IMG/VR virus record: IMGVR_UViG_3300045988_158434
Coordinates: 1-39,694 of that record
From: a virus
DNA: 39,694 nt
Strand: one strand, 5' to 3'
The position numbers were made by a program, and so were the translations under genes. Each line of letters begins with the position of its first letter. The first letter of the stretch is position 1. This document shows positions 1 to 25,504 of the stretch, in pieces. The notes under the pieces are model-generated. The model searched no databases, had not been told where the DNA came from, and worked only from the letters and a program-made list of their open reading frames with translations.

Positions 1-510
1 GTAGTCGCCGAGTTCGCAGTCGTCGCCGAGTTTGCAGTAGTTGCCGAGTTCGCAGCATTCGCCGAGTTCGCAGTCGTAGCCGAGTTTGCAGTAGTTGCCG
101 AGTTCGCAGCCGTCGCCGAGTTTGCAGCCGTAGCCGAGTTCGCAGCCGTAGCCGAGTTCGCAGTCGTAGATGAGTTTGCAGTCGTTGCCGAGTTCGCAGC
201 CGTTGCCGAGTCTGCAGTAGTTGCCGAGTTCGCAGTAGTCGCCGAGTTTGCAGCCGTCGCTGAGTTCGCAGCCGTAGCCGAGTTTGCAGCCGTCGCTGAG
301 TTCGCAGCCGTAGCCGAGTTTGCAGTCGTAGATGAGTTTGCAGTCGTTGCCGAGTTTGCAGCCGTTGCCGAGTTTGCAGTAGTTGCCGAGTTCGCAGCCG
401 TCGCCTACCTCAATCCCTCTTTGGGCAAATTCTTCCTCTAATTCGGAAATGTTGGTATACTGAAAAGCTGCCCAACCTATCCCATTGACTTGCAAATAAA
501 CAGTTTTCAT
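1..510 (-). CDS. N-terminal part of the wrap-around gene for Cys-periodic hexapeptide-repeat protein A (253 aa total; continues at 39391..39639)
   Basis: ATG (reverse complement) at 508-510. Translation MKTVYLQVNGIGWAAFQYTNISELEEEFAQRGIEVGDG is followed by 22 in-frame 18-bp units giving the hexads C[E/K/R]LG[N/D/Y][Y/G/D]. The ORF is open to position 1 and is not in the ORF track because it crosses the window edge. Confidence 0.6.
   Translation of the reverse strand, partial: MKTVYLQVNGIGWAAFQYTNISELEEEFAQRGIEVGDGCELGNYCKLGNGCKLGNDCKLIYDCKLGYGCELSDGCKLGYGCELSDGCKLGDYCELGNYCRLGNGCELGNDCKLIYDCELGYGCELGYGCKLGDGCELGNYCKLGYDCELGECCELGNYCKLGDDCELGDY
2..397. repeat. 22 tandem 18-bp units (5-nt variable spacer + gccgagttYgcag) inside gene A
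   Basis: Direct reading of the sequence. Units differ only at the 5-nt spacer, at ttc/ttt/tct, and twice at gccgag to gctgag or gatgag. Confidence 0.9.
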
Positions 511-527
511 TATCTTATTTTTTATTA

Positions 528-809
528 TTACACAAATTGATACCCGACATAACAATAGCTTCCCCAATTCTCGGCCCCATTTAGTAATGTTTCCTCGCAA
601 AGTTCCGGAACCTGTTCGCCGTTGTTTTCGCAGTACTCGCAAATTTCCTCGTAAGAGTCAAGAAGATCGAGCGCGAAACCATTGACTCCCCGATCCCAGC
701 AAGATCGAGCGCGCAAATAATTAAGACGTGTACGAATTTGATTTACTTCGTCCCTCCAAGAGCTGGAGAGCTTCGCAGCAGAAGCCGCAATATTTTCTGT
801 TTGTGACAT
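528..809 (-). CDS. hypothetical protein (Cys/acidic-rich, 93 aa)
   Basis: ORF with an ATG start, positioned in the early leftward operon. Confidence 0.4.
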   Translation of the reverse strand: MSQTENIAASAAKLSSSWRDEVNQIRTRLNYLRARSCWDRGVNGFALDLLDSYEEICEYCENNGEQVPELCEETLLNGAENWGSYCYVGYQFV

Positions 810-946
810 GGTAGTAAGTTTTTTTTACCTCTCCTACCCTACCCTATCCTACTATTCAAAATAATGCTAATTATAATTCAGTCGAACTTGAATTGATATT
901 ATGTTAAATAGTAGGATGTGGTAAGATTATCAGGTATTTTAATTAA

Positions 947-1222
947 TTAATTATAATAATAAGGCGTAGCGTCGATCTGATCGCCATCAATTATGTAGTC
1001 GTTATTCTCGTCGTCGACTACCATTTTTACCAATTCCACGCAATATACATCCCGCCAAGCTTCATCGCTATCCCCCCATTCCGAAATATCGGCGGGCTCA
1101 AACGCTGACAAATATTCCTTTTTTTTGTTGAAAAAATCGCGTGCCTTAGCTTCGTTTTCACTTGAAAAGACGGAAACCGAATCGGTGTAGCCGGCTTCAT
1201 TAACAGTAAACAAAGTTTTCAT
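947..1222 (-). CDS. hypothetical acidic protein (91 aa), first gene of the leftward operon
   Basis: ORF with an ATG at 1220-1222. It sits directly next to the control region. Confidence 0.4.
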   Translation of the reverse strand: MKTLFTVNEAGYTDSVSVFSSENEAKARDFFNKKKEYLSAFEPADISEWGDSDEAWRDVYCVELVKMVVDDENNDYIIDGDQIDATPYYYN

Positions 1223-1235
1223 TGTAGTAAGGTTT

Positions 1236-1262
1236 TAATTAGGGGGGGCTGTTCCCCCTTTT
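1236..1262. other. GC stem-loop (ggggg-ctgtt-ccccc) followed by a T-tract, lying in the 5' leader of the leftward operon
   Basis: Inverted repeat followed by ttttgcttta. Confidence 0.3.
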
Positions 1263-1691
1263 GCTTTATACAAAAATACAACACAATCACATGTTTTCCA
1301 AATTTTAATGCAAAAAATGCACCCAAATGCAATAGAAATTTGTTATAACGAAGCGAACAGATATAACGCTTTGTTATGACAGAAAGCGGCTTTACAAATG
1401 TAACCGAATTGGGCGCATTTACGCCTGAAAATCACATATATACAGAAATGACCTGAAGCACGAACACTATTGAAAATCGGATAGTATATCGGAACTGGAA
1501 TCGCCCCCAGATATTTTTTTTTATTTATACAGAAAAAAGCTGAAACGTTGGAAGTATAAGAAAGTTTTTGCATAGACATCAGCCCATGGCAGAATGTGAA
1601 CGTATAAGCTGCTGCCGGTTCTCTATGTTGTCGAGTGCTGATTGGCCGAGAATCGTAGTAATGTATACAGTATATATTCTTACTGATCTGG

Positions 1692-1836
1692 GCGCGTGCG
1701 TGTGCGTATGTGCGCCCGCGTATATATATTCCTTGTAATACGCGCGTGTGTGCGCGCAGGAAAGCTTTTGGCTTTGATTGTATATCAAGATACAGCGCGC
1801 ATGCGTGTGCGTGCGTCGTGCGCGTGTATACGTGTG
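1692..1836. repeat. three blocks of alternating purine/pyrimidine (CG/CA/TG)n, Z-DNA-prone and quasi-palindromic (1692-1730, 1737-1758, 1786-1836)
   Basis: Direct reading, e.g. gcgcgtgcgtgtgcgtatgtgcgc, cgcgcgtgtgtgcgcgca and gcgcgcatgcgtgtgcgtgcgtcgtgcgcgtgtatacgtgtgcgcatgtg. Confidence 0.85.
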
Positions 1837-2190
1837 CGCATGTGAATAGCATTTGTATTGATACTTGCAATAGTGAAATTGTATAGGCAATAATTATGTG
1901 TTGTTATTACTTTCCTGACGCCAAGAACGAGATACAGGTATAGATAGATCGTTGGTAAACAACCGCCCCCCGGTTCCACCATTGCTAATACTAACTATAC
2001 ATCCGGGGGTTTGTAAATCCGGGGGTGGTGTTATTTTTAGCGATGAGTTATTTTAATCGCATATATGTTTGTTTATTAGCGATTTTTTGCTATCTTTGTG
2101 GTTGATAAATCGTACATACTCACTCGTATACCCCAATTTATCATCTCACTTCAAGGCAGGTTTTCCCGTAGTAAGGTTTTTTCCTGCCGT

Positions 2191-2234
2191 ATCCTCGAAC
2201 TCGGAATATGTCCCCGGATTCGAGGATTTTTTTG
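2191..2234 (+). terminator. intrinsic terminator-like hairpin (atcctcgaa ... ttcgaggat) plus T7, 57 nt upstream of the first late gene
   Basis: 9-bp stem, 19-nt loop, then ttttttt at 2228-2234. A second 6-bp hairpin (ggcagg/cctgcc, 2156-2188) precedes it. Confidence 0.5.
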
Positions 2235-2261
2235 TTGTATGATTTATTAAAATTATATTTG
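2231..2261 (+). promoter_or_regulatory. candidate Bacteroides-type late promoter (TTTG-N19-TATATTTG)
   Basis: -33 TTTG at 2231-2234 and a -7 TAnnTTTG match (tatatttg) at 2254-2261. The ATG is at 2291. Confidence 0.3.
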
Positions 2262-2290
2262 TGATATTCTCATAAAAAAAACCTATATTC

Positions 2291-2641
2291 ATGGGGAGTT
2301 TGATGGATAAGTTGGTGGAGTTGCGGAGTGTGAAGGATGAGGTTACGGTATGCGAGGCGGAGGTTAGCGCAAGCAGTGGGAATATGCGATTCGATGCGGC
2401 TAAAGAGGCATTGGATAGCATGGGCATACTTCGGGATTTGGAGGCGATACGTCGGCAGTTGACCGATCCGTCGACGCAGATGGGAGATTTGGCGAAGCTG
2501 AAGTCGAAACTTGATGCCTACATGAAGTTCGTTAACATTTACAAGAGTGCGGGTAGCATTGTGAACAGCAAAGGTATAAGTTTGGGGGACAGCGACAGTG
2601 ACGACAGTTTTCAGGAAGTCAGCATATCTCTGAAGCGATGA
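2291..2641 (+). CDS. hypothetical coiled-coil protein, possibly the small terminase subunit
   Basis: Sits immediately upstream of terL and overlaps its start (ATGA). No motif was recognised, so the call rests on position only. Confidence 0.3.
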   Translation: MGSLMDKLVELRSVKDEVTVCEAEVSASSGNMRFDAAKEALDSMGILRDLEAIRRQLTDPSTQMGDLAKLKSKLDAYMKFVNIYKSAGSIVNSKGISLGDSDSDDSFQEVSISLKR

Positions 2642-4020
2642 ATATCAATTTAGACATACCGCTTAATCCGAAACAAGTGGAAATGTACAATCGTCTGAAC
2701 GACGATAAGTACAACGAATGCCTGTTTTATGGGTCGAGCCGGTCGGGCAAAACATTTCTGATATTATTCTGGATGATATCCCAATCTGTTATTCGTAAAG
2801 CCAACTGCCTGATTTTAAGAAATGTTCTTACTTCATTGCAGACGGGTATGATCCGTCAGACATTGCCTGCCGTTCTGAAATCTATCGCTTCTCACAACGG
2901 GCTGAATAAGGTAGAGGATTTGGTTGCGCCGAATGGTAAGCGATTTTGCGTGTACGACAAGAAGGAGAATATACTGCGCTTTTTCAACGGGGCATATATT
3001 CAGTTCGGGGCTATACGGGGATCGTCGGACGTATCGAGCACATACGACAAGATACTATCCACTGAATGGGGCCATATCTTCGTAGACGAATGTTCTGAAG
3101 TAGACGAGTTGGCTATCGACACCTTGCGGACGCGACTGGCGCAAAAGCTCGACGTGACCAATAAGATGATCTATGCGCTGAACCCGACAACCAAGTCGCA
3201 CTGGACATACGTCCGCTTCTTTAAGAGGGAAAATCGGGAGGGCCTGAAGCTCGAACCGGCCGTGACGGATCGATTCTTGGTCGTTCATTTTTCGGTGCTG
3301 GACAATCGAGAATATCTTTCGGCGGATTATGTAAATACCCTGTCCCAGCTTTCCGCCTTGCAGCGCAAGCGTTTCCTCTCGGGAGAATACAGCGACGAGA
3401 GCGAGGGAGAAATATTCGATCATATACCTTGGGGGCCTGTCCCGAGCCAGCTTTTCGACTGCCTGATATATACGGACCCGTCGGCAAAAGATAACGAGTC
3501 GTGCGACTACAAGGCATCCGTGTTGCTGGCGTCGGCCGCCGATAAGATATACTTGCTGGGCGTCAAGGCCGTAAAAGGGACTTCGCTGCAAATGATGTAC
3601 AATATCTTCGAGCTGTTCAAGATGTCTCCCGTTCCGCCGCGCATCGTCATGGAGAAAAAGCAAGTGCCTCTCGACTTCGACACGACTTTCGCCCGATTCC
3701 AAAGCGAGACCGGATGGAACTGTCCGCTGACGTGGGATACTCGCAATAACGGGAATAAGTTTATGAATATCGAGTCCACGCTCGAACCCCTCTTTCGCAA
3801 CGGCCGCTTCATCGTCAACGAGGAACTGAAGGGCTCGCCCGAGGGAGAATTGCTCGTCGAGCAGTTCATATTCTTTTCCCGCAAATACAACAAAAACCGA
3901 AAGGACGATATTCCCGACGCTACCGCAAAGGGCGCGTCTCTGTTAAACCGTGAAATGACATCGATGAAATTCACGCAATGGCCCATGTTCTACCGAAGGG
4001 GAACCCGAGTAACTTTTTGA
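2638..4020 (+). CDS. terL: terminase large subunit
   Basis: Walker A GSSRSGKT, Walker B FVDECSEVDE, and a C-terminal nuclease-like region (CLIYTDPSAKD...). Confidence 0.85.
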   Translation: MNINLDIPLNPKQVEMYNRLNDDKYNECLFYGSSRSGKTFLILFWMISQSVIRKANCLILRNVLTSLQTGMIRQTLPAVLKSIASHNGLNKVEDLVAPNGKRFCVYDKKENILRFFNGAYIQFGAIRGSSDVSSTYDKILSTEWGHIFVDECSEVDELAIDTLRTRLAQKLDVTNKMIYALNPTTKSHWTYVRFFKRENREGLKLEPAVTDRFLVVHFSVLDNREYLSADYVNTLSQLSALQRKRFLSGEYSDESEGEIFDHIPWGPVPSQLFDCLIYTDPSAKDNESCDYKASVLLASAADKIYLLGVKAVKGTSLQMMYNIFELFKMSPVPPRIVMEKKQVPLDFDTTFARFQSETGWNCPLTWDTRNNGNKFMNIESTLEPLFRNGRFIVNEELKGSPEGELLVEQFIFFSRKYNKNRKDDIPDATAKGASLLNREMTSMKFTQWPMFYRRGTRVTF

Positions 4021-4024
4021 CGCT

Positions 4025-4441
4025 ATGATACTTTCTCCCATGTATTTTGAAAAAGACCAGCTAAAGCAATGGCTTAGCGCACAACAGATAGCGCAGTTCG
4101 AGGGCATGTACTCCGACATCGTACAGACAGCGTACGAGAATGCTTTGGGACTTCTCTATTCCGAGGTAGGTCACATACTCGATCTGGATACCATGCTTTC
4201 CGAGACGAATCCCGACAAGAAGGATCCTACGCTGAAATGGGTGCTGCTCGTGATGACCGCCTTCAACATCGCATCCCCTTCGCTCAATGTCTCCGAGCCT
4301 CTGCGATACAACTACGAAAAAGTGCTCGCAAAGGTGAACGAGCTCAAAAGCGGCATGAGTTCGATATACGAGGCTCCGACCAAGAGCGAGCCGAACGCAC
4401 TCCCGCAAATGGTTTCCGTTCGAAACAAGTACATCGGATAA
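4025..4441 (+). CDS. hypothetical protein
   Basis: ORF between terL and the portal gene. Confidence 0.4.
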   Translation: MILSPMYFEKDQLKQWLSAQQIAQFEGMYSDIVQTAYENALGLLYSEVGHILDLDTMLSETNPDKKDPTLKWVLLVMTAFNIASPSLNVSEPLRYNYEKVLAKVNELKSGMSSIYEAPTKSEPNALPQMVSVRNKYIG

Positions 4442-4477
4442 ATCCAACTCGTCGATAATTCTTACAACTTCTCCCCT

Positions 4478-5848
4478 ATGGCTAAAAAATTCCATCCGTC
4501 CTCGCCGAAGCGGTTCCACCAACCGAAGGTGAACCCGTTCTCCGTGCCTAAGAAAGTGGGAGTCCCCAACCTGGTATCCAGATACCTTTTCAACGACTAC
4601 TACGTCGAATATACCCCGCAATGGTGGCGCGAGGCTATCGACCGGGCCATCAACTATTCCGATCTGACCTACGTCGATTCGATGTACTCCTTTACGATCC
4701 AGTCGTCCCCCTTCCTGTGCTCGCAGATCAACAAAAGGCTCGTCCCCATCAAGAAGATGAGAATCGTTCTCGAAGTAGACGGCAAGGAAGATATTCGGCT
4801 TACCGAACTGATCGTTCGCACAAGGTGGTTCGATCAGTTCAAGAGGGCATGCAGCCTGAGCAAGTTCTACGGCGTGGTCGTATTCGGCATAGACCCCAAA
4901 ACCGATTCGTGGCAGTATTATCCCATGCGAAACGTCGATCTGGAGAACAGGGCCCTCCGGTTCGGAACCTACGAGTATATGAATGTCGTCAATGTGGACG
5001 AATACGACAACATATTCTTCTTCAGACCCGAGACGGATCAAGATTTCGGCATGGGACTTCTTCAGCCCATTTCCCGAGCCATGATAGGAATCGTGGAGGC
5101 ATACAATAACTGGAGCATCCTCGGCAAGCGGTTCTCCTACCCTACTATGGTTATCGGATTCGACAACAACAACACGATTGCCCAGCAATTTGCGTCCGAG
5201 CTCGCCCGCAAGGTCGATATTATGGAAACGCCGATCATCCCGTTCTTCTATGACTCGGCGACAGGCGGTAAAAGCAAGTACATGGTCGAGGTGAATCCCG
5301 TGCAGACGCAGTCCTATCCAGATGCTTTCCGAGTATTCAAAGAGTACATATCCGAATACCGGTCCGAAATCATGCAGCTCGTAACGGGCGGCACGTTGCT
5401 CGGAGCTACCGAGAAAAATACGAATTCCGAGCAACTGGCGTCCATTCACATGGAATTGTATCAAGACATTATCGCCGACGACAAAAAATCGGTTCTCTCG
5501 GTGCTCAACGAGGGCGGCGCACTCAAGAAAATAGCCCGCTTGTACGGCGAACCGGCTCTCGAAAGGGCCCGAGCGGTCGAGGTGCCGGACCTGAGCATCC
5601 CTATCGACAAGGCCGAAATCATTATGAACGGCGCGGCCAAGATGGGAATACAGCTATCCGCCAATTTCTTTAAGAAAATCGGCCTCGAAGAGTCCGACAT
5701 CAACACGAAAGTCCGTAATAACTCGTGGAACGAGGTCCTTTCTGCCAAAATCGGCTCCATTTTCGGACGAAGCGGCAACAAAAAGACGACTCCGGACCCC
5801 AAAATCCACCCCATCGACCCGAAACAAGCCAAAAATAAGCTGTTATGA
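4478..5848 (+). CDS. putative portal protein
   Basis: 456 aa, immediately downstream of terL. The call rests on gene order and size. Confidence 0.5.
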   Translation: MAKKFHPSSPKRFHQPKVNPFSVPKKVGVPNLVSRYLFNDYYVEYTPQWWREAIDRAINYSDLTYVDSMYSFTIQSSPFLCSQINKRLVPIKKMRIVLEVDGKEDIRLTELIVRTRWFDQFKRACSLSKFYGVVVFGIDPKTDSWQYYPMRNVDLENRALRFGTYEYMNVVNVDEYDNIFFFRPETDQDFGMGLLQPISRAMIGIVEAYNNWSILGKRFSYPTMVIGFDNNNTIAQQFASELARKVDIMETPIIPFFYDSATGGKSKYMVEVNPVQTQSYPDAFRVFKEYISEYRSEIMQLVTGGTLLGATEKNTNSEQLASIHMELYQDIIADDKKSVLSVLNEGGALKKIARLYGEPALERARAVEVPDLSIPIDKAEIIMNGAAKMGIQLSANFFKKIGLEESDINTKVRNNSWNEVLSAKIGSIFGRSGNKKTTPDPKIHPIDPKQAKNKLL

Positions 5849-6075
5849 CCGAAAAACACCTTTGGATACTCGTCGTATCGATGCTCGTATCCGCATTTTT
5901 CGCCTCGACCCTATCGCTGGGATGGATTTCAGCCATCATAACGCTCGTGATCGCCGTGTGCTACGCCTTTTTCGAGAAAAACCGAAAGCCCGAGACCTCG
6001 GCGAAGGATATGTCGCTCTATGTCTACATTGCGCTGGCCGGAACAATGGCCATGAATGTCCTCGTAAGCTGTTAG
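5845..6075 (+). CDS. small membrane protein (2-3 transmembrane helices)
   Basis: Hydrophobic segments WILVVSMLVSAFFASTL, ISAIITLVIAVCYAFF and YVYIALAGTMAMNVLV. Confidence 0.35.
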   Translation: MTEKHLWILVVSMLVSAFFASTLSLGWISAIITLVIAVCYAFFEKNRKPETSAKDMSLYVYIALAGTMAMNVLVSC

Positions 6076-6081
6076 GCACGC

Positions 6082-6552
6082 ATGGCTGACATCGGCGATA
6101 TGATCCGAATGCTCGAAAGGGTAAAAAAGGCGCGCAATAGCTCCGTGCCGCCCAAGATAGCTACGCTGATGCTCCAAGAGACGCGCGAGAACTTCAGAAA
6201 AGAAGGGTATACGCAGGACGGAGGCATCAAAAAATGGCCCCAAAGAAGCCACGAATACATGCTCAACTATCCCATACTGGACTATACGGGCCGCCTCAAA
6301 AGAAGCCTTACACGCGATTTCTCGCCCCAATTCGCCCGAATCGGAGCAAACGCCTACTACGCGCAGGTACAGCAAGAGGGAGGACGCGCGCATAACGGAT
6401 TCTGGAGCCGCCGCCCGCCCTACTCTACCGAGCCATTCTCCAGCCGCATCGGCAAAATCATTCCCCGCCCCTTCTTGGGCGTCGGTAAAAAAACTTACGC
6501 GGGTGTGCGTAAGATATTTACCGAAGAAGTCAGAAAAGCTATCTACGGATAG
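6082..6552 (+). CDS. putative virion morphogenesis protein (Mu gpG / P2 gpS-like)
   Basis: 156 aa; ...ENFRKEGYTQDGGIKKWPQ...YTGRLKRSL resembles the Phage_tail_S family. Its position matches the Mu order. Confidence 0.4.
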   Translation: MADIGDMIRMLERVKKARNSSVPPKIATLMLQETRENFRKEGYTQDGGIKKWPQRSHEYMLNYPILDYTGRLKRSLTRDFSPQFARIGANAYYAQVQQEGGRAHNGFWSRRPPYSTEPFSSRIGKIIPRPFLGVGKKTYAGVRKIFTEEVRKAIYG

Positions 6553-6622
6553 CATTTTCTTATAATAAAATTTGTTATCATAAAAAAAACATATAATTTA
6601 GTGTCGAAAACCGTGCATCTCG

Positions 6623-7156
6623 ATGATTGGAACGCTTACCGACACATTCGTAGCCGCTCTTAGAGAGGCTCCCGTCGTGACGGAGAACGGTGTAAACGTC
6701 TCCGTGATGAACGACGAGGGGCAGGGACTGGTCAATACGCCCCTTCCGGCCGTCGTGGTGCATGTGCGAAACAGCAACAAGCCTACGGTATTTATTCGTG
6801 GGGGCATTTGCGATTGGTTCGACGTCTCGCTGAACGTACTTGTCGATTTCGATAACTACTCCGTGACGCCGGACGGCGGAATCCAGACCAAAATGCGTAA
6901 CATGGCCTACGAGATCCGCCGATACATCGAAAAGGTGAAAAGAGGCCCCCTATTCAGTACGCTGATTGACGAATACGACTTTTTCCCCCTCTATCGGGGA
7001 ATCGAAACCTATCAAACGGCCGCTTTCGTAGGTACTGTCGGAAAGGACATCGATGTGTTTCGCATTCTGTACCAATGCACGGCGCTCGACAAACAGAGCT
7101 TGGAGGACGAATACGTGATGTTCGATTCCAAGCAGATAAATTTGGTTCGAACATGA
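6623..7156 (+). CDS. hypothetical head-module protein
   Basis: ORF that overlaps the downstream start (ATGA). Confidence 0.4.
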   Translation: MIGTLTDTFVAALREAPVVTENGVNVSVMNDEGQGLVNTPLPAVVVHVRNSNKPTVFIRGGICDWFDVSLNVLVDFDNYSVTPDGGIQTKMRNMAYEIRRYIEKVKRGPLFSTLIDEYDFFPLYRGIETYQTAAFVGTVGKDIDVFRILYQCTALDKQSLEDEYVMFDSKQINLVRT

Positions 7157-9261
7157 TTAGGCAAATTCTGTCCGACGAGACGATGAACCGAAAAGGGTAT
7201 ATTACCCTGAACGACGGCGTGAATTGGGACGAGTATCGCAAGAATCCCGTCCTGATGCTGGAGCACGAGGACGACAAGCAGCCCATCGGCCGCATAGACA
7301 ATATCCGGTTCGAGGATAATGCTTGGTACGGAGACCTCGTATTCGCCGACACGGAAGAAGGCCGGGAGAAGGAAAAACTCTACAACGAGGGATTCTACAA
7401 TGCCGTATCCATCAGCGGTCTGGCCACCAAAGTCAAGCGCGAGGGCGTAGTGTACGCCGTGCAGTTCGACGTGTGGGAAGTGTCTCTGGTAGCTGTCCCG
7501 GCCAATCCGAACGCTATCGCACAGAGGACGTCCGACAAATCGACGCTCTCCGTATCGTTCAACGATGTGGACGACAAACTGATCGAGCCCGATTCTTTGT
7601 CGGCCTATCAAATCTCTACCATTAACAAATTCAAAGAAAACATGGAAGCAAACAACAAACCCGAAACGGAAGTCAAGGAGGAAGCCCTGAAGGCTCCCGA
7701 ATCCGTAGAGGCCGCCCCGGAGGAACCGAGTGCGGAGCATAAGGGCTTTATGTCCCGCGTCCTCTCGTCCCTTTCGGCCATTACGTCAATGCTCAACGAT
7801 CGCAAGGAAGAAGCGCAGGCACAGCCCGAGGCCGAGTCTTTGAAAGCCCCGGAGGCTGCGGAAGCTCCCGAGACGGAGAAGACGGAAACCGAGCAGGAGG
7901 CGCAAAAGGCACCCGAAGGAAAGGAAGAACTTTCGGCACAGCCCGAGCCCAGAATCTTCAACATTCACGAAAAAACACCGAAAATCAAGATGACCGCATT
8001 CAAATCTGTCAACGACTATCTGCGGAGCGACGAAGGTCAGTACAAGTTCCGCCAGATTCAGAAGCTGTCCGCCGTTCCGTCGAAGGAGCTGCGCCGTCCG
8101 GAAAACGCTACGCCGGTCGAGTTCGTCCGGGAGTATTCGGCCCTGATGGCTAACGACCCCGGATTCATGTCCTTTATGGGCAATGTAACTTTCCAGAACG
8201 CCGACGGCCCGAAGGAAGTTTTCAGCAAGACGCTGGATAAGCTCAATATCGGCGAGAATTCCATCGACTTCCTCGAAACGTCGCCCGATCTGGCGAAGAT
8301 TACGTGGCTCTCGCTGTTCTACCGCGTTCTGTTGCCCGAAAACAGTTGGGCCGACAGATGTATGCGCGTATCGGGCGACAGCCATGCCGGCGTCATCTGG
8401 ATCAACTCGGCGATGAATCCGAAAGTGTACGTGGGAAGCCGCGCTCCGCTGAACGCGAAAACCTCGTACTACGAGGACATCCCGGTCGCTTTGGCCGAGA
8501 AGGTATTCTCGATGGAACCCATCGGATGGCAGCCCGCAACGACGGACGTACTGGCATACAACAACCGCGCGACCGGACAGAGCGAGGCTATGCGCGTCGT
8601 GGTGAACAAAATCCACAACTATTGGTTGCAGATGTTCGCCGAGGCCGCATCGGTAAAGGTTCCCATGTCGGGTCCCGATACCTTCGCCGTCGATGCCTCG
8701 ACGTTCCCCATCAACGACGCCGCGACCGGTACGCTTCTGGAGTTCGCCCTCAAGAACATCACCCAGATGCAAAAGGGATTCATCAACCAGAACTACACGA
8801 TGGACTACAACGAGGCCGTCATGGTGATGGCCGCCGCGTACTTCGAGCAGCTTCAGAACGACCCGCTCATCACCTCGATCCTGTCGAAGCAGACGGGCCG
8901 CGTAGGTCCTATGACCGTTCAGTACAGCGGCTTCGAGGCTATGCCGCGCTCCACTGTCGCCGCATACGACACCGCATCGAGCAAGGTGGTGGATGCAGAG
9001 CTCTATTGCGACGGCAAGGTGAACGCAGACGGCACGATTCCGTCCTACACGGCGCCCGTGCTGGCCGCTACGGCCTACGACATCGCTCTGGGCTTCATCC
9101 CCGGCGAGGCCATCATCGCGCAGGGCAACACGAACGTACACATGGTACAGAATCCCAACGACTATTCTTGGGTTATGTCTATGGATATTCGTTCGGGAGC
9201 CGGAGCCGCTCGTAAAGACGGGCTCGGTATCGGCATCATCATTCCTGCCGTAAGCGCGTAA
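7153..9261 (+). CDS. prohead protease (S78) - scaffold-like linker - major capsid protein fusion
   Basis: The N-terminal domain has Peptidase_S78 motifs (VLMLEHEDDKQPIG, SISG, EVSLVAVPANPNA). Next comes a roughly 150-aa E/A/P/K-rich low-complexity linker, then a roughly 430-aa C-terminal domain of major-capsid size. The start is the internal ATG at 7153, overlapping the upstream stop. Confidence 0.55.
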   Translation: MIRQILSDETMNRKGYITLNDGVNWDEYRKNPVLMLEHEDDKQPIGRIDNIRFEDNAWYGDLVFADTEEGREKEKLYNEGFYNAVSISGLATKVKREGVVYAVQFDVWEVSLVAVPANPNAIAQRTSDKSTLSVSFNDVDDKLIEPDSLSAYQISTINKFKENMEANNKPETEVKEEALKAPESVEAAPEEPSAEHKGFMSRVLSSLSAITSMLNDRKEEAQAQPEAESLKAPEAAEAPETEKTETEQEAQKAPEGKEELSAQPEPRIFNIHEKTPKIKMTAFKSVNDYLRSDEGQYKFRQIQKLSAVPSKELRRPENATPVEFVREYSALMANDPGFMSFMGNVTFQNADGPKEVFSKTLDKLNIGENSIDFLETSPDLAKITWLSLFYRVLLPENSWADRCMRVSGDSHAGVIWINSAMNPKVYVGSRAPLNAKTSYYEDIPVALAEKVFSMEPIGWQPATTDVLAYNNRATGQSEAMRVVVNKIHNYWLQMFAEAASVKVPMSGPDTFAVDASTFPINDAATGTLLEFALKNITQMQKGFINQNYTMDYNEAVMVMAAAYFEQLQNDPLITSILSKQTGRVGPMTVQYSGFEAMPRSTVAAYDTASSKVVDAELYCDGKVNADGTIPSYTAPVLAATAYDIALGFIPGEAIIAQGNTNVHMVQNPNDYSWVMSMDIRSGAGAARKDGLGIGIIIPAVSA

Positions 9262-9316
9262 TCAACAGGGGCGGCTGACGCGGACTGTTCCCTTAAAAAC
9301 ATCATGTCCGGGTCAC

Positions 9317-9736
9317 ATGTCATACACGACCCTCCGCACGGCCGCCCCTTCTTTTACACCCATTCGTAAATACGTTACAGCTATGGTAAACTTTTCCGAC
9401 AGATATTATCAGAACCTCATTATCGCAACCGCCAAATACGGCACGCTCTACTGCTGCGAAGACGGCAACGTGTATCGGAACGAGGCATCGGCCAAAGACC
9501 GGTACAAAACCGCATTGGCCCTTAGAGGCCGCTGCCGCTATTGCAAGGTAGAGAAAGGCAAGGAGCCCGTTTCCAACGAGGAATTCGAAAACATGCTCCG
9601 CGCCTACGAGGACAAGCAGGCGCTGCCGCCCAAGAAGGCCGAAAAGCCGGATATGAGTCTGGAAAGCGCAGCCGAGATACTCGAATCACGCCGTAAGAAG
9701 AAGGCGGGCGCGAATGCTCAAAAGAAAGAAGATTAG
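9317..9736 (+). CDS. hypothetical protein with a Lys-rich C-terminus
   Basis: ORF; an alternative start is possible at MVNFSD. Confidence 0.35.
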   Translation: MSYTTLRTAAPSFTPIRKYVTAMVNFSDRYYQNLIIATAKYGTLYCCEDGNVYRNEASAKDRYKTALALRGRCRYCKVEKGKEPVSNEEFENMLRAYEDKQALPPKKAEKPDMSLESAAEILESRRKKKAGANAQKKED

Positions 9737-9756
9737 ATCATTTCACACAACCGAAA

Positions 9757-10980
9757 ATGGCACAAACTGGCATATATACCGAGCTCCTCGATACCGCCCT
9801 CGGCGGTACGGCTCAGGATAACAGCGTGTCGATGCTTTTCGCGCCGGGCGCTAAAGGCACAGCCCCCGGACCCGGCGGCGTTACTCTCGAAGTGGGTACC
9901 TCCTATATGCTCACCGGCTTAGAGGATGCCGTCAACCTCGGGATCAACGAAGAGTACGACACGACGAACAAAACGCCCCTGTACTTCAATATCAAGGAGT
10001 TCTACGACAAGGCCGACTCCGGAACGAAACTGTGGATTTACGTCTACGACAAGACGACCTACGCGCAGACGTCGAATTTTCTGCAAGCCCCCGACTTCCT
10101 GACGGCCGTCCGCTCGACTATGGAAACGCTGGAGAACAACCGCCCGCGCATCATCATGGTCGCTCAGGCAGAAGGTCAGGACACGCCGACCGAAGGCGGA
10201 TTGTCGGAAGACACTATCACCTGCTGCACGAATTTCGAGTCGGCTCTCGAAACTCTGTTCGGCGAAGGCATCCGCGCGGTCGGCATTCTCGATGCCGCCG
10301 TAGTATCGGGCATCTCCGATCTTCCCGACGTATCGGAATACAACGCCCCTCGCGTCGCGTTGCAGATCGTTACCTCGACCAAGACGCGGAACGCCTCTGT
10401 CGGACGCTCCGGCGGTATCGTATCGGCCCGCAATCTGGCCACGTCCATCGGGAACGTATCGATGGGCAGCGTAACGACCGCCGACTATCTCGTAGATTCC
10501 GCGTCCAACGCGCCTGTCAATACGCCTGTTACGCTCCTTACGCGCACGCAGACGAACGATCTGGGCGCGAAACAATACCTGTTCACGCTCCGGCGCAATG
10601 ACGTAGGTATCTGCTACAACGACGGCGCGACGATGAACTCGGCCGCCAATGCCCTCTCAAGCATCGATTTCGTCCGCGTAGCGAACGCCGTGTGCGACGA
10701 CTGCGACACCTTCTTTACGAAGCTGCTGAACGTCAATATCCCCGTACAGAGCAACGGTACGATCAACGCGGCGTTCAAATCCGGCACGCTGGCCAATCTG
10801 AGAAGCCTGTATATCGACCCGTATATCAACCGGGGCGACGCATCGCAGATCAACGTGGATTTCGAGGCCAAAGACGGCAATTTCGTACAGTCGCGGGCCC
10901 TCGAAGTAACCGTCGAGATTCTCCCGAACGCTCCTATGAGGGAAGCGTTTATTACCGTCATGTTCGTTTCATCTCTCTAA
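9757..10980 (+). CDS. putative tail sheath protein (P2 FI-like)
   Basis: 407 aa, at the head of the sheath-tube-chaperone-TMP order. Confidence 0.5.
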   Translation: MAQTGIYTELLDTALGGTAQDNSVSMLFAPGAKGTAPGPGGVTLEVGTSYMLTGLEDAVNLGINEEYDTTNKTPLYFNIKEFYDKADSGTKLWIYVYDKTTYAQTSNFLQAPDFLTAVRSTMETLENNRPRIIMVAQAEGQDTPTEGGLSEDTITCCTNFESALETLFGEGIRAVGILDAAVVSGISDLPDVSEYNAPRVALQIVTSTKTRNASVGRSGGIVSARNLATSIGNVSMGSVTTADYLVDSASNAPVNTPVTLLTRTQTNDLGAKQYLFTLRRNDVGICYNDGATMNSAANALSSIDFVRVANAVCDDCDTFFTKLLNVNIPVQSNGTINAAFKSGTLANLRSLYIDPYINRGDASQINVDFEAKDGNFVQSRALEVTVEILPNAPMREAFITVMFVSSL

Positions 10981-10990
10981 TCTAAAGACT

Positions 10991-11473
10991 ATGCCTAATT
11001 TAAGTGAGTATATCGTTCCGAGCAGCGACGTACAGATAAACATGACTTTCAACGGCATTCCGAGCATGAAACTCGACACGGGGTCGCGGCTCAACTGGGC
11101 CAACTCCCAGAGCGTGCAGGACATATTCGCTATCAGTCACGTAGACCCTATCGGAATCGTCGCGCTCAATGCCACGTACACCGCCTCGGTCACGATGCAG
11201 AGCGGAGAGTATAACGCGCTGATGGACGCGATCAACGCTGCCGCACCGGCGGGCCAACTGTACGCCTCCATGCTGGAAGTCGCCGGATTTACCCTGACGT
11301 GCGCCTACGCGCTCAAAAACGCAGGAACGCCCAAGTCGGCTATCGTCAACTTCCTGAACTGCCGGGTATCGGACGTCAGCGGCGACGTGGACGCCAACGA
11401 TCCGCAGACTCTCGTCACTATCTCTCTCCGAGGAACGGGTATTAAACGAGACGTATCTCCCATTACGGTTTAA
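10991..11473 (+). CDS. putative tail tube protein (P2 FII-like)
   Basis: 160 aa, between the sheath and the chaperones. Confidence 0.45.
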   Translation: MPNLSEYIVPSSDVQINMTFNGIPSMKLDTGSRLNWANSQSVQDIFAISHVDPIGIVALNATYTASVTMQSGEYNALMDAINAAAPAGQLYASMLEVAGFTLTCAYALKNAGTPKSAIVNFLNCRVSDVSGDVDANDPQTLVTISLRGTGIKRDVSPITV

Positions 11474-11490
11474 CATCCGTTTTTCGCTTC

Positions 11491-11925
11491 ATGTCTCAAC
11501 CGGGGACCCCTCGGGGTCCCCAAATTTTTAAAACTATGTCGCTAACTTACACCGTAAAAACAAGCTACTTTAGCTGGGTCCCCGACGTAGAGGGGAACAT
11601 GACCGAAAAGCCCACCGAGGCGGACGTCGAAATCCTGCACCTGCAACGCACCAATCCGGCCCATATGGCCGTCGCGCTGAAAATCCTCGAAGGATACGAG
11701 CATCTGGACCAGCTCGGGACTCTGTCCGTCGAGTTCTGCAAGTGCGTCATCAAGGACGACAAGCTGCGGGAGTCCATCGTCAAAGATATGGGCTGCTGCT
11801 TGGACATATTCCAATCCGAAGCCGTAGCGGAGGATATAGAAAATTTTCTATCGGGCTTGGGTTTCGTCCAAAAAATGATAAGAAAAGCCGAAAACCTGAG
11901 CCGGAAAGAAAAATCGACGAAATAA
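11491..11925 (+). CDS. tail assembly chaperone (gpG/E-like, short form)
   Basis: Positioned before the tape measure gene and overlaps a -1 frame ORF. Confidence 0.5.
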   Translation: MSQPGTPRGPQIFKTMSLTYTVKTSYFSWVPDVEGNMTEKPTEADVEILHLQRTNPAHMAVALKILEGYEHLDQLGTLSVEFCKCVIKDDKLRESIVKDMGCCLDIFQSEAVAEDIENFLSGLGFVQKMIRKAENLSRKEKSTK

Positions 11926-12107
11926 TCTCGGATTTTACCAAAAAAGACCCGTATCTGATAAAGAAAGCGGTTATTTCCCGGTATTTCCACGAGCCCTTTT
12001 CGGAGATAGTCGGCAAGTTTTCCGCCGATCAGATCGATAGCATGTTCTATGCCGCTCTGTACATGATATATCATTTCGATTGGGCTCCTTTTAACCAGAA
12101 AAAGTAA
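11491..12107 (+). CDS. tail assembly chaperone long form (GT/E+E'-like), made by a -1 programmed frameshift at G_GGT_TTC (11859-11865)
   Basis: ORF 11742..12107 is in the -1 frame relative to 11491..11925. A canonical XXXYYYZ heptamer, gggtttc, lies in the overlap. The fused product ends 3 nt before the tape measure start. Confidence 0.5.
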
Positions 12108-12109
12108 CT

Positions 12110-14230
12110 ATGGCGTCTCCCGTATATTCTGTGGTCCTCAATTTAGAGGGCAATATGAATAGCGTTCTCGATTCGGCTATCGCCAAGAGCCGTATCCTGA
12201 ACAGCGAGCTCGGCAAAGTGTCCCGAAACGCTTCTGCCGGATCGAGAACGCGGAGGCGAAAAAAGACCGGCGAGATATCTGAAGAAGATTTATTCAAGCG
12301 GTATCCCCATATTCCGTCCGGTTGGCAAAATAGAGTCTTCCGGTTTAATTCCAAGTTGGAACGATCTCCTTTATTATCGCATAATGGCTTCCTGCGTAAC
12401 GTAGATCGTACCTTCAAGAATCTGCAACAGTTTTCCAATGATTTCCTGCGCAACAGCTTTACGCTGTACGGCGTGCGCAAGAACTTCGGGAACGCGGTCA
12501 ATATCATATCACAGTTCGCTCATACGGCCGGAACGGCTTTCCCTGCTTTAGGTGCGGCAGGACGTATAGGAGGGGCTGCCGCCATAGGATACGGTGCTCC
12601 CGCTTTGGCCGGCGGTCTCGGCTACTGGGCCGGCATGCGCACACTGAAAAGCCAAAGCATGCAGGAGGCTGCCGCGAACAACATGCGGTACAACATGGCC
12701 CGGCACTCGCTCGGGGAAGGCTACGACGACGCCTTCCGGGCGGCCAGCGACATCGCCGTATCGACCGGTTCCTCCCGCGTGGGAACGCTGGACCTTATAT
12801 CGACCCTGACCGGCCTGAACGTAGGAGGCACATTATTGTCGCAGGAGCAAGCATCCTATTTGGCCAATATCACAGCCAAGTTAGCACATGCCAGTAATAG
12901 AGATATGGGCGTCGTCGGCCTGAACATGCAGCAGATACTCACTTCATGGCAGGGGATCGACATCAAGGAGCTCATCAAGAGCGTACCGCTTATCGGGAAA
13001 TTTCTCCAAGACGAGCGGAGAAAGGCGGGCAGCAACGAGGATATATACGCCTTCGTCCGGTCGAATCCCCAAGCGTTCTTCCGTGCGCTGGAGGAATTCA
13101 ACAAAACGGTCAAGATTTCCCCGGTGGCTATGGCCCGGGGGCAAATAGCCCTCAATCGGGAGAATTTCTTCCTGAAGTTAGAGAAACTTTTCGAGCCGGT
13201 CGCCGAAAGAATGGCCGACGCAAACACAAAACTCTACGATATATTAGGAGAGGCGGCCGAGGAATTTTTCTCGGAGCAGAACTTAAACAATGTCGATTCA
13301 ATTATCAATAACTTTCTGGAAGCCTCGAAAACATTACTGGGAGCCGCTGCCAAATTCGGTAATGCGGCAATCAACGTGGGCTCATGGACGGTGGAGAATC
13401 CGTGGACCACTATTGCCGGGCTATACGCGCTTTTCGGCAAAGGGTCGTTGCAGATGAAAGTGGCTACCATTATTGCGGGTAGTATTATAGATGGCAACAA
13501 AAAGGCGGACAATAAAGCAAAAGAAGTTGCAGGTAAAGAGCTTTTATCTCGACCTGAAAGATACATAGCTTTCAATGAAATGCTTGCAGCAAGCGGCATT
13601 CCTGCATCGAAGTATAAAGAAACGGCTGATTATGTTTTTTCACATCCGAACGACGAAATAAGCAAACAACTATTGGGAGCGACCGCAAGGTATATACACG
13701 GGAGTTCTTATCTCGATAGGTTAACATTTAGGGACAAGGGCTTTAGAGCAATCGAGCAAGAATATGGACCGTGGTCGTGGGAAATGATCCAAAACGCATT
13801 ACCCGACGCATGGAACATGGCTAAAATTGGTTTTTTTGAAAGACCAAATGTCGGCTTTAATGGAGTTCCCTATAAAATTCCTCCTTCAAAAACCAAAGAC
13901 CAAGAAAAAGCACAAGAAGATTTTAACAATGCAATTAAATACATTGTTCCCAATAAACATCCAGAAGACCAATATAAGGATTCTATCCAATCCCTAACCG
14001 ATTCTTTCGACACCCAGTCGGTCGGACAGTCCGATACCCAAACCATTCGGGGCATGTCCGGCACGACCCGGGCGCTCGTCATCAACTTTAACCGCGAGAT
14101 AGTCAGCATGCCCACGACGATCAACGCAAACGACGTGGAGGACATAAAGCAACAGTTGGAGCCCGCCATAGAGGACATGATCGTGCGCGGCCTTACCATT
14201 GCGCTAAACAATTCAACCCGCATGATATGA
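12110..14230 (+). CDS. tail tape measure protein
   Basis: 706 aa with a Gly/Ala-rich hydrophobic core (GAAGRIGGAAAIGYGAPALAGGLGYWAGM), in the canonical position. Confidence 0.7.
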   Translation: MASPVYSVVLNLEGNMNSVLDSAIAKSRILNSELGKVSRNASAGSRTRRRKKTGEISEEDLFKRYPHIPSGWQNRVFRFNSKLERSPLLSHNGFLRNVDRTFKNLQQFSNDFLRNSFTLYGVRKNFGNAVNIISQFAHTAGTAFPALGAAGRIGGAAAIGYGAPALAGGLGYWAGMRTLKSQSMQEAAANNMRYNMARHSLGEGYDDAFRAASDIAVSTGSSRVGTLDLISTLTGLNVGGTLLSQEQASYLANITAKLAHASNRDMGVVGLNMQQILTSWQGIDIKELIKSVPLIGKFLQDERRKAGSNEDIYAFVRSNPQAFFRALEEFNKTVKISPVAMARGQIALNRENFFLKLEKLFEPVAERMADANTKLYDILGEAAEEFFSEQNLNNVDSIINNFLEASKTLLGAAAKFGNAAINVGSWTVENPWTTIAGLYALFGKGSLQMKVATIIAGSIIDGNKKADNKAKEVAGKELLSRPERYIAFNEMLAASGIPASKYKETADYVFSHPNDEISKQLLGATARYIHGSSYLDRLTFRDKGFRAIEQEYGPWSWEMIQNALPDAWNMAKIGFFERPNVGFNGVPYKIPPSKTKDQEKAQEDFNNAIKYIVPNKHPEDQYKDSIQSLTDSFDTQSVGQSDTQTIRGMSGTTRALVINFNREIVSMPTTINANDVEDIKQQLEPAIEDMIVRGLTIALNNSTRMI

Positions 14231-15063
14231 GCAGAAACAAATATACATCCATATCGGGAGGCGGCCTGCTCAGCTCGGGGGTCGATTCGGTTATCAGCCG
14301 CATAGACAACGGCCTGATCGGCAGAGGCTATCAGACCGTGGGCAACTATGTCGAGGATGCGTACAACGCGGCCCAGCGGGGCTATAAGATCGTCATGGCC
14401 GAAGCGGGGATTGCCAAACAGCTACTGCGCGGCGGCGCTGCCTACTCTTACGACGAAATGGGCAATGTGGCCGTCACGGTAAACTCCCCCTTCGTGTCAC
14501 GGAACGACCGCTATTCCGCCGGCGGAGTCTCTTTGGGCCGGTACGACCCGAATCAGGACTACTATTTCAAGTGCGGCGACTACTTTCTGCCCCTCTCGTT
14601 CACCTATTCGGTCAATGCCAAGAAACACACGGCATCGTCCCAGTTGGTGGACGGACCCGTCATATTCGAGCGGGTGTATAAGGAGCCGAAGATCATATCG
14701 GTGAATATTCAGGTGCAGACCAAGCAGCTGTCCCCGGCTACGTCCAACCTGTTCGCGGCCTACGAAAGTACGGTCAACGATACCGAAGGCGACCCGTACA
14801 AGCTGGAATTGGAGAACCTTTCGAGCATGTTCAACGATCTTTTCGAGAATCAGGACGTGTTCCGGATCGTCAATACGTTCATCAACCAAAACCTGCATGT
14901 CAACTACGTGTATATGTCCGAATACGACGTGTCGCCACAAGCCGGGTCGCTGCTTACCGAAATACGCATGCAGTTGATCGAAGTGGACGTTACCTCGAAT
15001 GTCATATCGGAAGATGCGGCCAATGTCGTAACGACCGATACCGGCTTTGCCGTGAACGGATAA
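14227..15063 (+). CDS. tail/baseplate assembly protein (post-TMP)
   Basis: Position only. Confidence 0.35.
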   Translation: MSRNKYTSISGGGLLSSGVDSVISRIDNGLIGRGYQTVGNYVEDAYNAAQRGYKIVMAEAGIAKQLLRGGAAYSYDEMGNVAVTVNSPFVSRNDRYSAGGVSLGRYDPNQDYYFKCGDYFLPLSFTYSVNAKKHTASSQLVDGPVIFERVYKEPKIISVNIQVQTKQLSPATSNLFAAYESTVNDTEGDPYKLELENLSSMFNDLFENQDVFRIVNTFINQNLHVNYVYMSEYDVSPQAGSLLTEIRMQLIEVDVTSNVISEDAANVVTTDTGFAVNG

Positions 15064-15074
15064 CCATTACTGCC

Positions 15075-17189: not shown

Positions 17190-17195
17190 CAAGCT

Positions 17196-18330: not shown

Positions 18331-18331
18331 T

Positions 18332-19771: not shown

Positions 19772-19772
19772 C

Positions 19773-21101: not shown

Positions 21102-21111
21102 ATCTACCTCT

Positions 21112-23595: not shown

Positions 23596-23606
23596 CAATC
23601 AGCACA

Positions 23607-24224: not shown

Positions 24225-24235
24225 ACTTTATTGCT

Positions 24236-24715: not shown

Positions 24716-24717
24716 CC

Positions 24718-25466: not shown

Positions 25467-25504
25467 ACATTCGCAGCGGTTCTTTGACATATTGGAATTA
25501 CCGA

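Follow-up and report, generated by a model that had tools for sequence, protein, structure and literature searches.

The 39,694-nt stretch of viral DNA analysed here (the window; IMG/VR record IMGVR_UViG_3300045988_158434, taken whole) carries a cluster of tracts of strict purine/pyrimidine (R/Y) alternation in a non-coding spacer between divergent predicted promoters. The cluster is real and far above chance expectation. In four of the five phage lineages that bear such tracts, all variable tract columns are transitions (27 of 27) and all indels are of even length. Selection appears, from these alignments, to act on a property of the duplex that depends on R/Y alternation. We tentatively read the tracts as the Z-DNA-prone part of a supercoil-responsive structural module in a control or origin-like spacer, a reading that we prefer while rating it somewhat short of probable.

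Alternating tracts in the divergent spacer

An alternating tract was defined as a maximal run of strict R/Y alternation, and the whole window was searched. Five such runs, of 24, 13, 21, 22 and 28 nt, lie at 1692–1844 (tracts A, A2, B, C and D; Table 1), and the longest run outside the cluster is 14 nt. In 300 dinucleotide-preserving shuffles of the window, which served as the chance baseline, the longest run had a mean of 15.2 nt and a maximum of 22 nt. Runs of at least 20 nt number four in the window compared with a shuffle mean of 0.023, and the bases held in runs of at least 12 nt reach 108 within 160 nt (shuffle mean 17.6, maximum 37). The original prediction, made from the sequence alone, had placed three alternating blocks here, the last ending at 1836. 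The alternation holds, and so does its extent, put at about 110 of 145 bp (we count 114 of 144 steps within 1692–1836), whereas the blocks are four long ones and one short one, and the last reaches 1844.

The plus-strand purine of the tracts is nearly always G, giving a (GY)n pattern. The four long runs contain few TA steps and combine at least the ~12 bp of alternation expected of Z-DNA-forming sequence with a dominance of CG and CA/TG steps. In composition the tracts are irregular mixtures of GC and GT steps with some AT/AC; a tandem-repeat test (TRF) found only a weak 6-nt period at 1803–1826 (score 32) and no pure repeat of a 1–6-nt unit. True palindromes occur inside them (TGCGCGCA at 1751–1758 and CGCATGCG at 1798–1805) because R/Y alternation yields palindromes automatically; two of the three quoted in the original prediction are real, and of the third, gtgtatac, only the GTATAC part is palindromic.

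Tracts of comparable length were found nowhere else in the window nor, across ~1.17 Mb of related loci, anywhere but in the homologous spacer, in keeping with the rarity first claimed for them, and a survey reports that RY patterns are generally suppressed among prokaryotes (PMC4060949). Runs of (GY)14 or longer are present in at least 120 unrelated IMG/VR viral contigs (L123–L202) of heterogeneous gene context, many of them irregular CG/TG mixtures of 30–250 nt that are frequently split into two or three blocks and frequently sit at the ends of contigs. Tracts of this kind are thus rare without being unique.

The cluster lies within the divergent intergenic region 1223–2290, in a spacer of ~765 nt between the innermost promoter elements that contains no credible genes. 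Scanning the whole window with the Bacteroidota promoter pattern TTTG-N18-22-TANNTTTG gave 5 matches compared with 0.35 expected, three of which bracket the divergent region; this placement agrees with the earlier description of the locus as a phage control region. The open reading frames (ORFs) that cross the tracts (1343–1870 and 1579–1890 on the minus strand, and three on the plus strand) have low-complexity translations, and in the strain L011 indels of 1, 4, 5, 8 and 10 nt over 1450–1640 break their frames. They are thus not coding, which rules out the tracts as coding sequence and upholds the view that the 'RAHTHA' ORFs seen here are spurious.

Substitution pattern and related lineages

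The window's own group (W group) comprises 27 sequences: 10 contigs taken from several IMG/VR datasets and 17 from ENA that differ in assembler and sample. The tracts are carried by all of these independent contigs, some of which are 50–473 kb long and include integrated prophages. Agreement across samples and assemblers excludes an assembly artefact; low coverage had been named in the original prediction as one way in which it might fail. The best-conserved part of the spacer is 1640–1850, even in L011, where the left half (1450–1640) has strongly diverged. All four long tracts are unchanged in length in 26 of the 27 sequences, one of these sequences having 86.6% spacer identity, the exception being L248, with a 16-nt, even-length deletion within tract D. 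Tract A is invariant in length and changes by transitions only, tract A2 is invariant throughout, tract B has two transitions in L011 that keep the alternation, and the variants of tract C (L004, L251, L011 and L249) again show transitions only.

An alignment of 10 W-group sequences allows the tracts to be compared with their flanks. Variable columns make up 7.4% of the tracts compared with 20% of the flanks (p = 0.0015). All 7 variable tract columns are transitions and none a transversion, compared with 104 transition-only and 94 transversion columns in the flanks (p = 0.016); at the flank rate, the probability of finding no transversion column among the 95 tract columns is 7e-5. When all 27 sequences are taken, 10 tract columns vary, every one of them by a transition.

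A TerL profile scan of IMG/VR gave 80 loci (TerL 50–100% identical; ~1.17 Mb), in which nearly all alternating runs of at least 15 nt fall in the homologous non-coding spacer. Comparable tracts occur at the same place in four of six related lineages (TerL 50–60% identical). The L054 lineage (15 contigs) has one 23-nt tract after a (TA)n-rich block, ~860 nt upstream of TerL; the L066 lineage has tracts of 22 and 13 nt; the L081 lineage has 17- and 19-nt tracts flanking an AT-rich centre, 7.7 kb upstream of TerL; and the L025 lineage has a 28-nt (CR)n tract. In these four as in W, a divergent spacer contains the tracts next to a TA-rich block, at 0.85 to 7.7 kb upstream of TerL. Gene maps show that the spacer of the related lineages likewise divides a leftward operon, starting with a conserved small protein related to the product of window 528–809, from a rightward module, and that the tract module travels with the spacer rather than with TerL.

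The alignment of the L054 lineage is the most informative. Its core of ~130 nt, CTATATATTATATATATTATTACTATATATGAATTGTATATATATACATA...ATACATTCATAAC[tract]GCGCGCAGTTCTG, is invariant in the 15 contigs, and a conserved (TA)n-rich block of ~50 nt beside the tract is perfectly kept. The tract interior occurs in nine alleles, with 12 of 23 columns variable, all by transitions, and with indels of 2 and 10 nt. The L054 flanks have 89 transition-only and 141 transversion columns (tract–flank difference, p = 1.9e-5), and the probability of zero transversion columns among the 23 tract columns at the flank rate is 8e-4. The L066 and L081 lineages add 5 variable tract columns, all transitions. Pooled over the lineages, 27 variable tract columns are transition-only and 4 carry transversions, the flank counts being 244 and 298 (p = 3e-6).

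Strand polarity varies. The tracts are (GY)n in W, L054 and L066 and (CR)n in the L025 lineage and in the alleles L056, L060 and L084; some L054 alleles swap GY for CR polarity, and in lineages with tracts on both sides of the AT-rich block, polarity follows the side. Alternation is thus kept where sequence and polarity are not, pointing to a constraint on the duplex and arguing against a base-specific protein site or an RNA. The substitution pattern suggests purifying selection that spares only R-to-R and Y-to-Y changes within the tracts. The property under selection may be Z-DNA potential, the best known of those that depend on alternation, or the related deformability of YR steps.

The CpG observed/expected ratio of the genome is 1.31, and the transition-only pattern is therefore not simply decay by deamination of 5-methylcytosine, whose standing as the sole cause is weakened. 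A methyltransferase-like ORF at 30366–31022 matches a PHROG only and is of no assignable type. Restriction-site avoidance, or a decoy role, was also considered and is not supported: GCGC, CGCG, TGCGCA, GCATGC and GTATAC are not notably depleted genome-wide.

Calculated B–Z transition and rival explanations

The B–Z transition was calculated from the dinucleotide energies and junction cost of the SIBZ energy table (PMC3024258, Table 1), using a simple single-run model of our own. The blocks cost 1.1–1.3 kcal/mol per dinucleotide. For tract A the cost is 13.2 kcal/mol and the critical superhelical density (sigma) −0.036 to −0.040; for the tract region critical sigma is −0.036 to −0.042 in domains of 5–40 kb. 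At a sigma of −0.06 in a 10-kb domain, the free-energy change of the best tract segment is −24.8 kcal/mol compared with −8.1 kcal/mol at the next best site, and the tract region ranks first in the genome by a wide margin. By this calculation, the composition that had been called strongly Z-DNA-forming is the most Z-prone of the genome. By simple arithmetic on that set of helical parameters, flipping all 95 bp would absorb ~20 helical turns, a large part of the supercoils that a 5–10-kb domain contains.

In the twin-domain model of Liu and Wang, transcription-driven negative supercoiling peaks between divergent promoters. Divergent transcription and gyrase would load the spacer with negative supercoils; at a local sigma beyond about −0.04, one or more tracts would switch from B to Z, and the flipped tracts would buffer or gate torsional stress. 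Such gating would in turn set the ease with which the adjoining AT block opens (origin firing) and the strength of coupling between the early and late promoter sets. The module would comprise a TA-rich, easily unwound block and alternating GC/GT tracts that are deformable and read as duplex rather than base by base. We infer both the formation of Z-DNA in vivo and its effect. A second AT-type stretch, TATATATAT at 1721–1729, together with the TA-rich block (Table 1), has the make-up of an AT-rich unwinding element. In 6 of 7 lineage representatives, local GC skew is negative (about −0.1 to −0.4) over the 100 nt on the left of the AT-rich block and turns sharply positive (+0.1 to +0.7) on its right; the window is the exception, with a left side that is already positive. 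This switch looks origin-like or R-loop-prone. The functions of supercoil-sensitive switch and of origin, both raised in the original prediction, would each be compatible with the data.

Several points weigh against the reading of the tracts as a Z-prone, supercoil-responsive module. Z-DNA formation by the tracts is predicted from sequence, conservation and calculation, and the promoters are pattern matches rather than mapped transcription start sites. The critical sigma of about −0.04 lies beyond the unconstrained steady-state superhelicity of bacteria, usually quoted as about −0.025 to −0.03; it is reachable with total or transcription-driven supercoiling, so that Z formation would need local transcription-driven stress. 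Lineages differ in tract number (1 to 5) and in tract length (13 to 28 nt). Related genomes do carry tracts, and the original prediction, which their lack would have refuted, stands; the constraint is nevertheless not universal. The L085/L087 lineage has only a block of TA-type alternation, and no tract was found within the fetched flanks of the L026 lineage. Of the 7 variable tract columns of the L025 lineage, 4 have transversions, as is the case in its flanks, and in one of its sub-lineages the tract has decayed to 14 nt. The blocks can also be aligned as direct repeats, as set out below. Finally, transitions and dinucleotide slippage preserve alternation automatically, and mutation bias may therefore explain part of the pattern; the transversion deficit relative to the flanks, the low variation of the W tracts and the CpG ratio indicate that it is not the whole story.

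If mutation were the whole story, the tracts would be a functionless by-product: a CpG-rich, dinucleotide-like repeat, subject to slippage and transition drift and tolerated in a non-coding spacer. The even-step lengths (23, 21 and 13 nt in L054; 28, 22 and 17 nt in L025; the 16-nt deletion in L248) speak for such an origin, as do substitutions that are all of the CpG to TpG/CpA type, the lack of constraint in the L025 lineage and the sporadic appearance of mixed CG/TG tracts, in every gene context, in the unrelated IMG/VR contigs. We nevertheless consider it distinctly unlikely. The W tracts vary less than their flanks and almost never in length, the absence of transversions from 95 and from 23 columns is improbable at flank rates, the tracts are not pure repeats (TRF), the CpG ratio argues against deamination pressure, and tracts in the same place in five lineages with non-alignable spacers require either retention or repeated origin. 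Also rather unlikely, in our estimate, is that the tracts are protein-binding repeats, whether origin iterons (served by an initiator and the DnaD-like loader, with the TA-rich block as unwinding element) or operators of an early regulator. The four long blocks align as direct repeats with 76–88% identity at spacings of 50, 55 and 27 nt, an identity that is inflated because any two (GY)n strings agree at every second base, and the block centres, 44.5 (A–B), 57.5 (B–C) and 25 nt (C–D) apart, have no common helical phase. Six copies of GCGTG, all on the plus strand, fall within the 130 nt of 1694–1826, against under-representation genome-wide (59 observed compared with 80 ± 8 expected; all 100 shuffles had at least 59). 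TA-rich DNA adjoins the tracts and direct repeats of TATACAG occur close by, no part of the W-group spacer is better conserved than the tract region, and the skew of the lineage representatives changes sign at the AT block as at an origin; the phage encodes a DnaD-like loader, a winged helix-turn-helix (wHTH) protein and other small DNA-binding candidates. However, the DnaD-like gene is ~9 kb away rather than adjacent, DnaA boxes show no excess, polarity flips among lineages and alleles, and the most variable part of the otherwise invariant L054 core is the tract interior. The same variability between invariant flanks, the polarity flips and the automatic origin of the palindromes weaken the earlier suggestion that a dimeric regulator binds here. 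A protein that reads the shape of the DNA and needs alternation only is conceivable, and it would merge the protein-binding explanation with the structural one.

A part in packaging or end protection, with the tracts as terminase pac/cos DNA beside the GGTAAACA plus G-run motif or as a Chi-like cluster that stops an exonuclease, is very improbable. A motif shared across lineages, GGGGTAAACAGGGGG[CT]GGGGG, does lie 110–390 nt right of the tracts and persists between spacers that are not alignable elsewhere; in lineages other than the window's, repeats of the GAGCGAGCGAAG type come before it, within several hundred nt of G-rich DNA, and in the window copy the G-run is replaced by its complement. 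The W tracts are moreover ~0.8 kb upstream of the terminase genes, and GCGCGTG, which we take to be the Chi sequence of Lactococcus lactis and which may not be that of the host, occurs in blocks A, B and D in one orientation. In L081, by contrast, the tract and motif module remains in the divergent spacer 7.2–7.7 kb upstream of TerL. No physical genome end was located at or near the tracts among the contig ends examined in the region, each of which is a circular overlap of 55 nt, a remnant of Nextera adapter or a break within G-rich DNA, and since strand polarity flips, orientation-dependent functions such as a Chi cluster do not fit. We give least credence to an RNA role of the tracts, within either a structured non-coding RNA or a leader that is transcribed and regulatory; its chances are very slight. 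The single strand folds somewhat better than shuffles (z = −2.3, DNA parameters) and tracts C and D are able to pair, but that pairing depends on G–T wobble in self-similar sequence, the promoter scan found no promoter-like site directed into the tracts, and strand polarity is not conserved. The window contains no Rfam 15 family at gathering score, no tRNA and no tmRNA; sub-threshold Rfam hits in 1200–2300 are low-complexity matches to eukaryotic (GT)n-rich families. A cruciform formed by C and D is a weak candidate on the same fold score and G–T dependence.

Taken furthest, the structural reading would have a gut Bacteroidota phage family keep a Z-prone 'torsional capacitor', with an AT-rich unwinding block at its side, between its early and late promoters, selected on alternation and not on sequence, a proposal that we regard as doubtful. 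If it is true, B–Z flipping of the capacitor would set origin opening or insulate the promoter sets from each other's supercoiling, and to our knowledge this would be the first natural phage cis-element selected for Z-forming potential. Two small wHTH candidates in the phage show no sequence similarity to any solved Z-DNA-binding domain, as judged by sequence comparison only, and thus no Z-alpha-like protein was recognized. Z-forming sequences are physically well understood, and evidence that bacteria or phages select for them is scarce; our literature searches turned up surveys of a general kind, none of them describing a Z-prone element that is conserved in the control region of a phage, and a 2025 survey says of Z-DNA that its examination in prokaryotes and viruses 'remains limited' (bioRxiv 10.64898/2025.12.30.697008). 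The locus provides a natural test case, as its substitution pattern points to selection on alternation itself and its position between divergent promoters is where theory expects the torsional stress needed for the transition. Many natural alleles, including the decayed ones of L025, can be compared directly, and a phage that exists both free and as a prophage makes experiments feasible given an identified host.

Genome map, prophage state and known systems

The first 55 nt of the window are identical to the last 55 nt and independent contigs span that junction, so that the window is a complete circular map of ~39.6 kb. Plus-strand genes run from 2291 to ~27.1 kb and encode the 116-aa ORF, TerL (Terminase_3/6N type), a Mu-type portal, and tail and baseplate proteins. 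Minus-strand genes run from 1222 leftwards over the junction to ~27.4 kb, their products including a YqaJ/RecE-like exonuclease, RecT, a DnaD-like helicase loader, an HNH protein, the wHTH protein and YopX. Coordinates are collected in Table 1.

Table 1 Features of the window and of related loci (plus, minus or no strand given as +, - or.)
Feature	Position	Strand	Details
Joined attP site	882–909	.	TCGAACTTGAATTGATATTATGTTAAAT
First leftward gene (91-aa)	947–1222	-	Faced by the leftward promoter
Leftward promoter, predicted, early operon	1271–1302	-	TTTG-N20-TATTTTTG; faces gene 947–1222
TATACAG direct copies (three)	Starts 1439, 1526, 1664 (span 1439–1670)	+	First two inside 22-nt direct repeats
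TA-rich block	1655–1680	.	GTAGTAATGTATACAGTATATATTCT; just upstream of tract A; counterpart of the (TA)n-rich block of other lineages
Tract A	1692–1715	.	24 nt, GCGCGTGCGTGTGCGTATGTGCGC
Tract A2, short and mixed	1717–1729	.	13 nt, CGCGTATATATAT; CG-type passing into TA-type alternation
Tract B	1738–1758	.	21 nt, ATACGCGCGTGTGTGCGCGCA
Tract C	1795–1816	.	22 nt, GCGCGCATGCGTGTGCGTGCGT
Tract D	1817–1844	.	28 nt, CGTGCGCGTGTATACGTGTGCGCATGTG; a single Y-Y step divides C and D
Conserved-motif variant GGTAAACAACCGCCCCCCGG	1954–1973	.	110 nt right of the tracts in the window
First rightward promoter, predicted	2068–2098	+	Pattern match; would drive a ~130-nt structured leader
Second rightward promoter, predicted	2231–2261	+	Pattern match; just upstream of the 116-aa ORF and TerL
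116-aa ORF	2291–2641	+	Just downstream of the second rightward promoter
TerL	2638–4020	+	After the 116-aa ORF
DnaD-like gene	32366–33361	-	~9 kb from the tracts on the circular map
Motif GGGGTAAACAGGGGG[CT]GGGGG	L054 ~5690, L066 ~6182, L080 ~96, L081 ~2754, L085 ~6393	.	Cross-lineage comparison
GC-skew sign change	L025 7300–7930, L054 5100–5700, L066 5700–6200, L081 2200–2800, L085 5900–6420	.	Local skew

Other elements occur in and around the divergent spacer. TATACAG has 7 copies in the window compared with 2.7 expected, and the three that fall in the spacer's left half may be iterons or sites resembling operators. At 1339–1380, just upstream of the leftward promoter, TTTGTTATAAC, which overlaps the palindrome GTTATAAC, lies 31 nt from TTTGTTATGAC; the two form a candidate operator pair. 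Between the two rightward promoters, a structured leader or small RNA is predicted at 2104–2242 on the plus strand (fold −36.1 kcal/mol, z = −3.3). The leader (~130 nt) ends in a hairpin and T-run, an inverted repeat at 2191–2240. In L005 and L011 the interior of this terminal hairpin is inverted with its stem kept, and L013, a relative with a TerL of 58%, has an analogous arrangement of promoter, hairpin and promoter. A mosaic breakpoint lies at ~1249, at the hairpin GGGGGGGCTGTTCCCCC (window 1223–1250 compared with L001, L002, L006, L008, L009, L243, L245–L247 and L252). The IMG/VR contigs L041, L044 and L074 start with a Nextera adapter remnant (...AGATGTGTATAAGAGACAG) that is present in the public records.

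Two genes elsewhere contain hexapeptide-coding repeats. An 18-nt tandem repeat of 22 copies with a 54-nt super-period occupies window 1–405 and 39630–39694 (gene 39391..510 over the junction, minus strand); it encodes C-[KE]-L-G-x-x hexapeptides in a predicted protein of 252 aa, which varies in length among contigs (156 to 276 aa), and this is a place where several assemblies break. The minus-strand gene 34994–36205 encodes a 403-aa protein (247–409 aa between contigs) that consists almost entirely of hexapeptide repeats of the form G[DN]A[QKW]V[SYC] and matches the Pfam YdcK beta-solenoid and bactofilin. Alternating runs of 12–13 nt at 32695–32706 (CGCGCGCGCACG) and 32736–32748 (TGTGTGTGTGTAT) lie in a low-complexity linker of the DnaD-like gene, on the minus strand, and rank joint second in the B–Z scan with two stretches of the 34994–36205 gene. 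We judge the short runs in the DnaD-like and YqaJ genes to be incidental; they seem to be by-products of coding.

The exact sequence of the 116-aa protein is also found in bacterial contigs of 50–473 kb, in which the phage is an integrated prophage of ~40 kb. The phage is abundant, this sequence being indexed in 3,513 blocks of an assembly collection. The prophage is flanked by PGM, HIT and an HTH_19 gene on one side and by a SusC/SusD locus on the other, the latter indicating a Bacteroidota host. A TerL-profile prophage search in representative genomes found no true relative, and the prophage context comes from exact-protein look-ups.

No integrase was found in the window. The prophage junctions (L243–L252 and L265–L268) share TTATGTTAAAT, and both this sequence and the right arm of the joined attP site are identical to the XerD arm of Escherichia coli dif, GGTGCGCATAATGTATATTATGTTAAAT (dif sequence from PMC3025954). 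The attP site is therefore dif-like; its host-side partner, ATGAATCATAATTAGTATTATGTTAAAT, also bears the ...CATAA inner half of the left arm. By these features, the phage looks like a tailed IMEX (Xer-exploiting integrative mobile element) that integrates through the host XerC/D. The IMEX examples known to us are filamentous phages and islands. In the contigs L244–L252, two more copies of TTATGTTAAAT in reverse orientation (621–631 and 1708–1718 in L245) flank a 160–176-aa HTH_19 gene between the host HIT gene and the prophage, and this pair with its gene may be a second small element at the same site.

Integration at 897–909 would cut the leftward early operon from its promoter at 1271–1302. 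It also splits off the 91-aa gene, if present, from the 93-aa gene (528–809) and the genes for the repeat protein, YqaJ, RecT and the DnaD-like protein, which come to lie at the opposite end of the prophage. The pattern scan gave no other full promoter match in 810–946, and the separation could silence the early genes in a lysogen without a repressor. About half of the strains lack the 91-aa gene, which brings the dif-like site to only ~55 nt from the homologous sequence that starts at window 1249. In the other tract-bearing lineages, no dif-like site was found in the DNA fetched upstream of TerL (2–10 kb). The tracts are thus not an attP accessory, and a dif-like attP was rejected as their general explanation.

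Several known systems share part of this arrangement. Rahmouni and Wells (1989) reportedly used Z-forming inserts in plasmids as in vivo probes of the negative supercoiling that transcription drives upstream of or between promoters. The phage tracts resemble such (CG)n/(CA-TG)n inserts in their alternating purines and pyrimidines, in their CG and TG/CA steps within blocks of 20–28 bp, in a calculated transition at a sigma of ~−0.04 (energetics from PMC3024258) and in lying in a zone of divergent transcription. The plasmid inserts are engineered or isolated natural sites, whereas the phage has a natural cluster of five blocks, apparently selected, with a TA-rich block beside it and with Z-DNA as a calculated property.

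Origins composed of iterons and an AT-rich DNA unwinding element, such as lambda ori, likewise place several ~20-bp repeats by AT-rich DNA in a non-coding control region, and relatives of the phage show an origin-like change in GC skew. Iterons, however, keep their sequence and as a rule sit within or next to the initiator gene, unlike tracts whose interior varies by transitions, whose polarity flips and which are 9 kb from the DnaD-like gene. Dinucleotide microsatellites and contingency loci have in common with the tracts the even-length indels, the allelic diversity within one lineage and the 16-nt deletion. Unlike microsatellites, the phage tracts have no pure repeat unit, and length polymorphism, present in the L054 and L025 lineages, is absent from 26 of the 27 W-group genomes; unlike at contingency loci, no ORF or promoter spacer with a switchable phase is evident at the tracts. 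Nor do we know of any dedicated non-B-DNA element in systems of divergent promoters coupled by supercoiling. The phage spacer is like those bacterial systems (PMC5175336, 'Inter-sigmulon communication through topological promoter coupling'), where transcription-driven supercoiling can couple the two sides, in that its predicted divergent promoters do not overlap and lie a few hundred base pairs apart.

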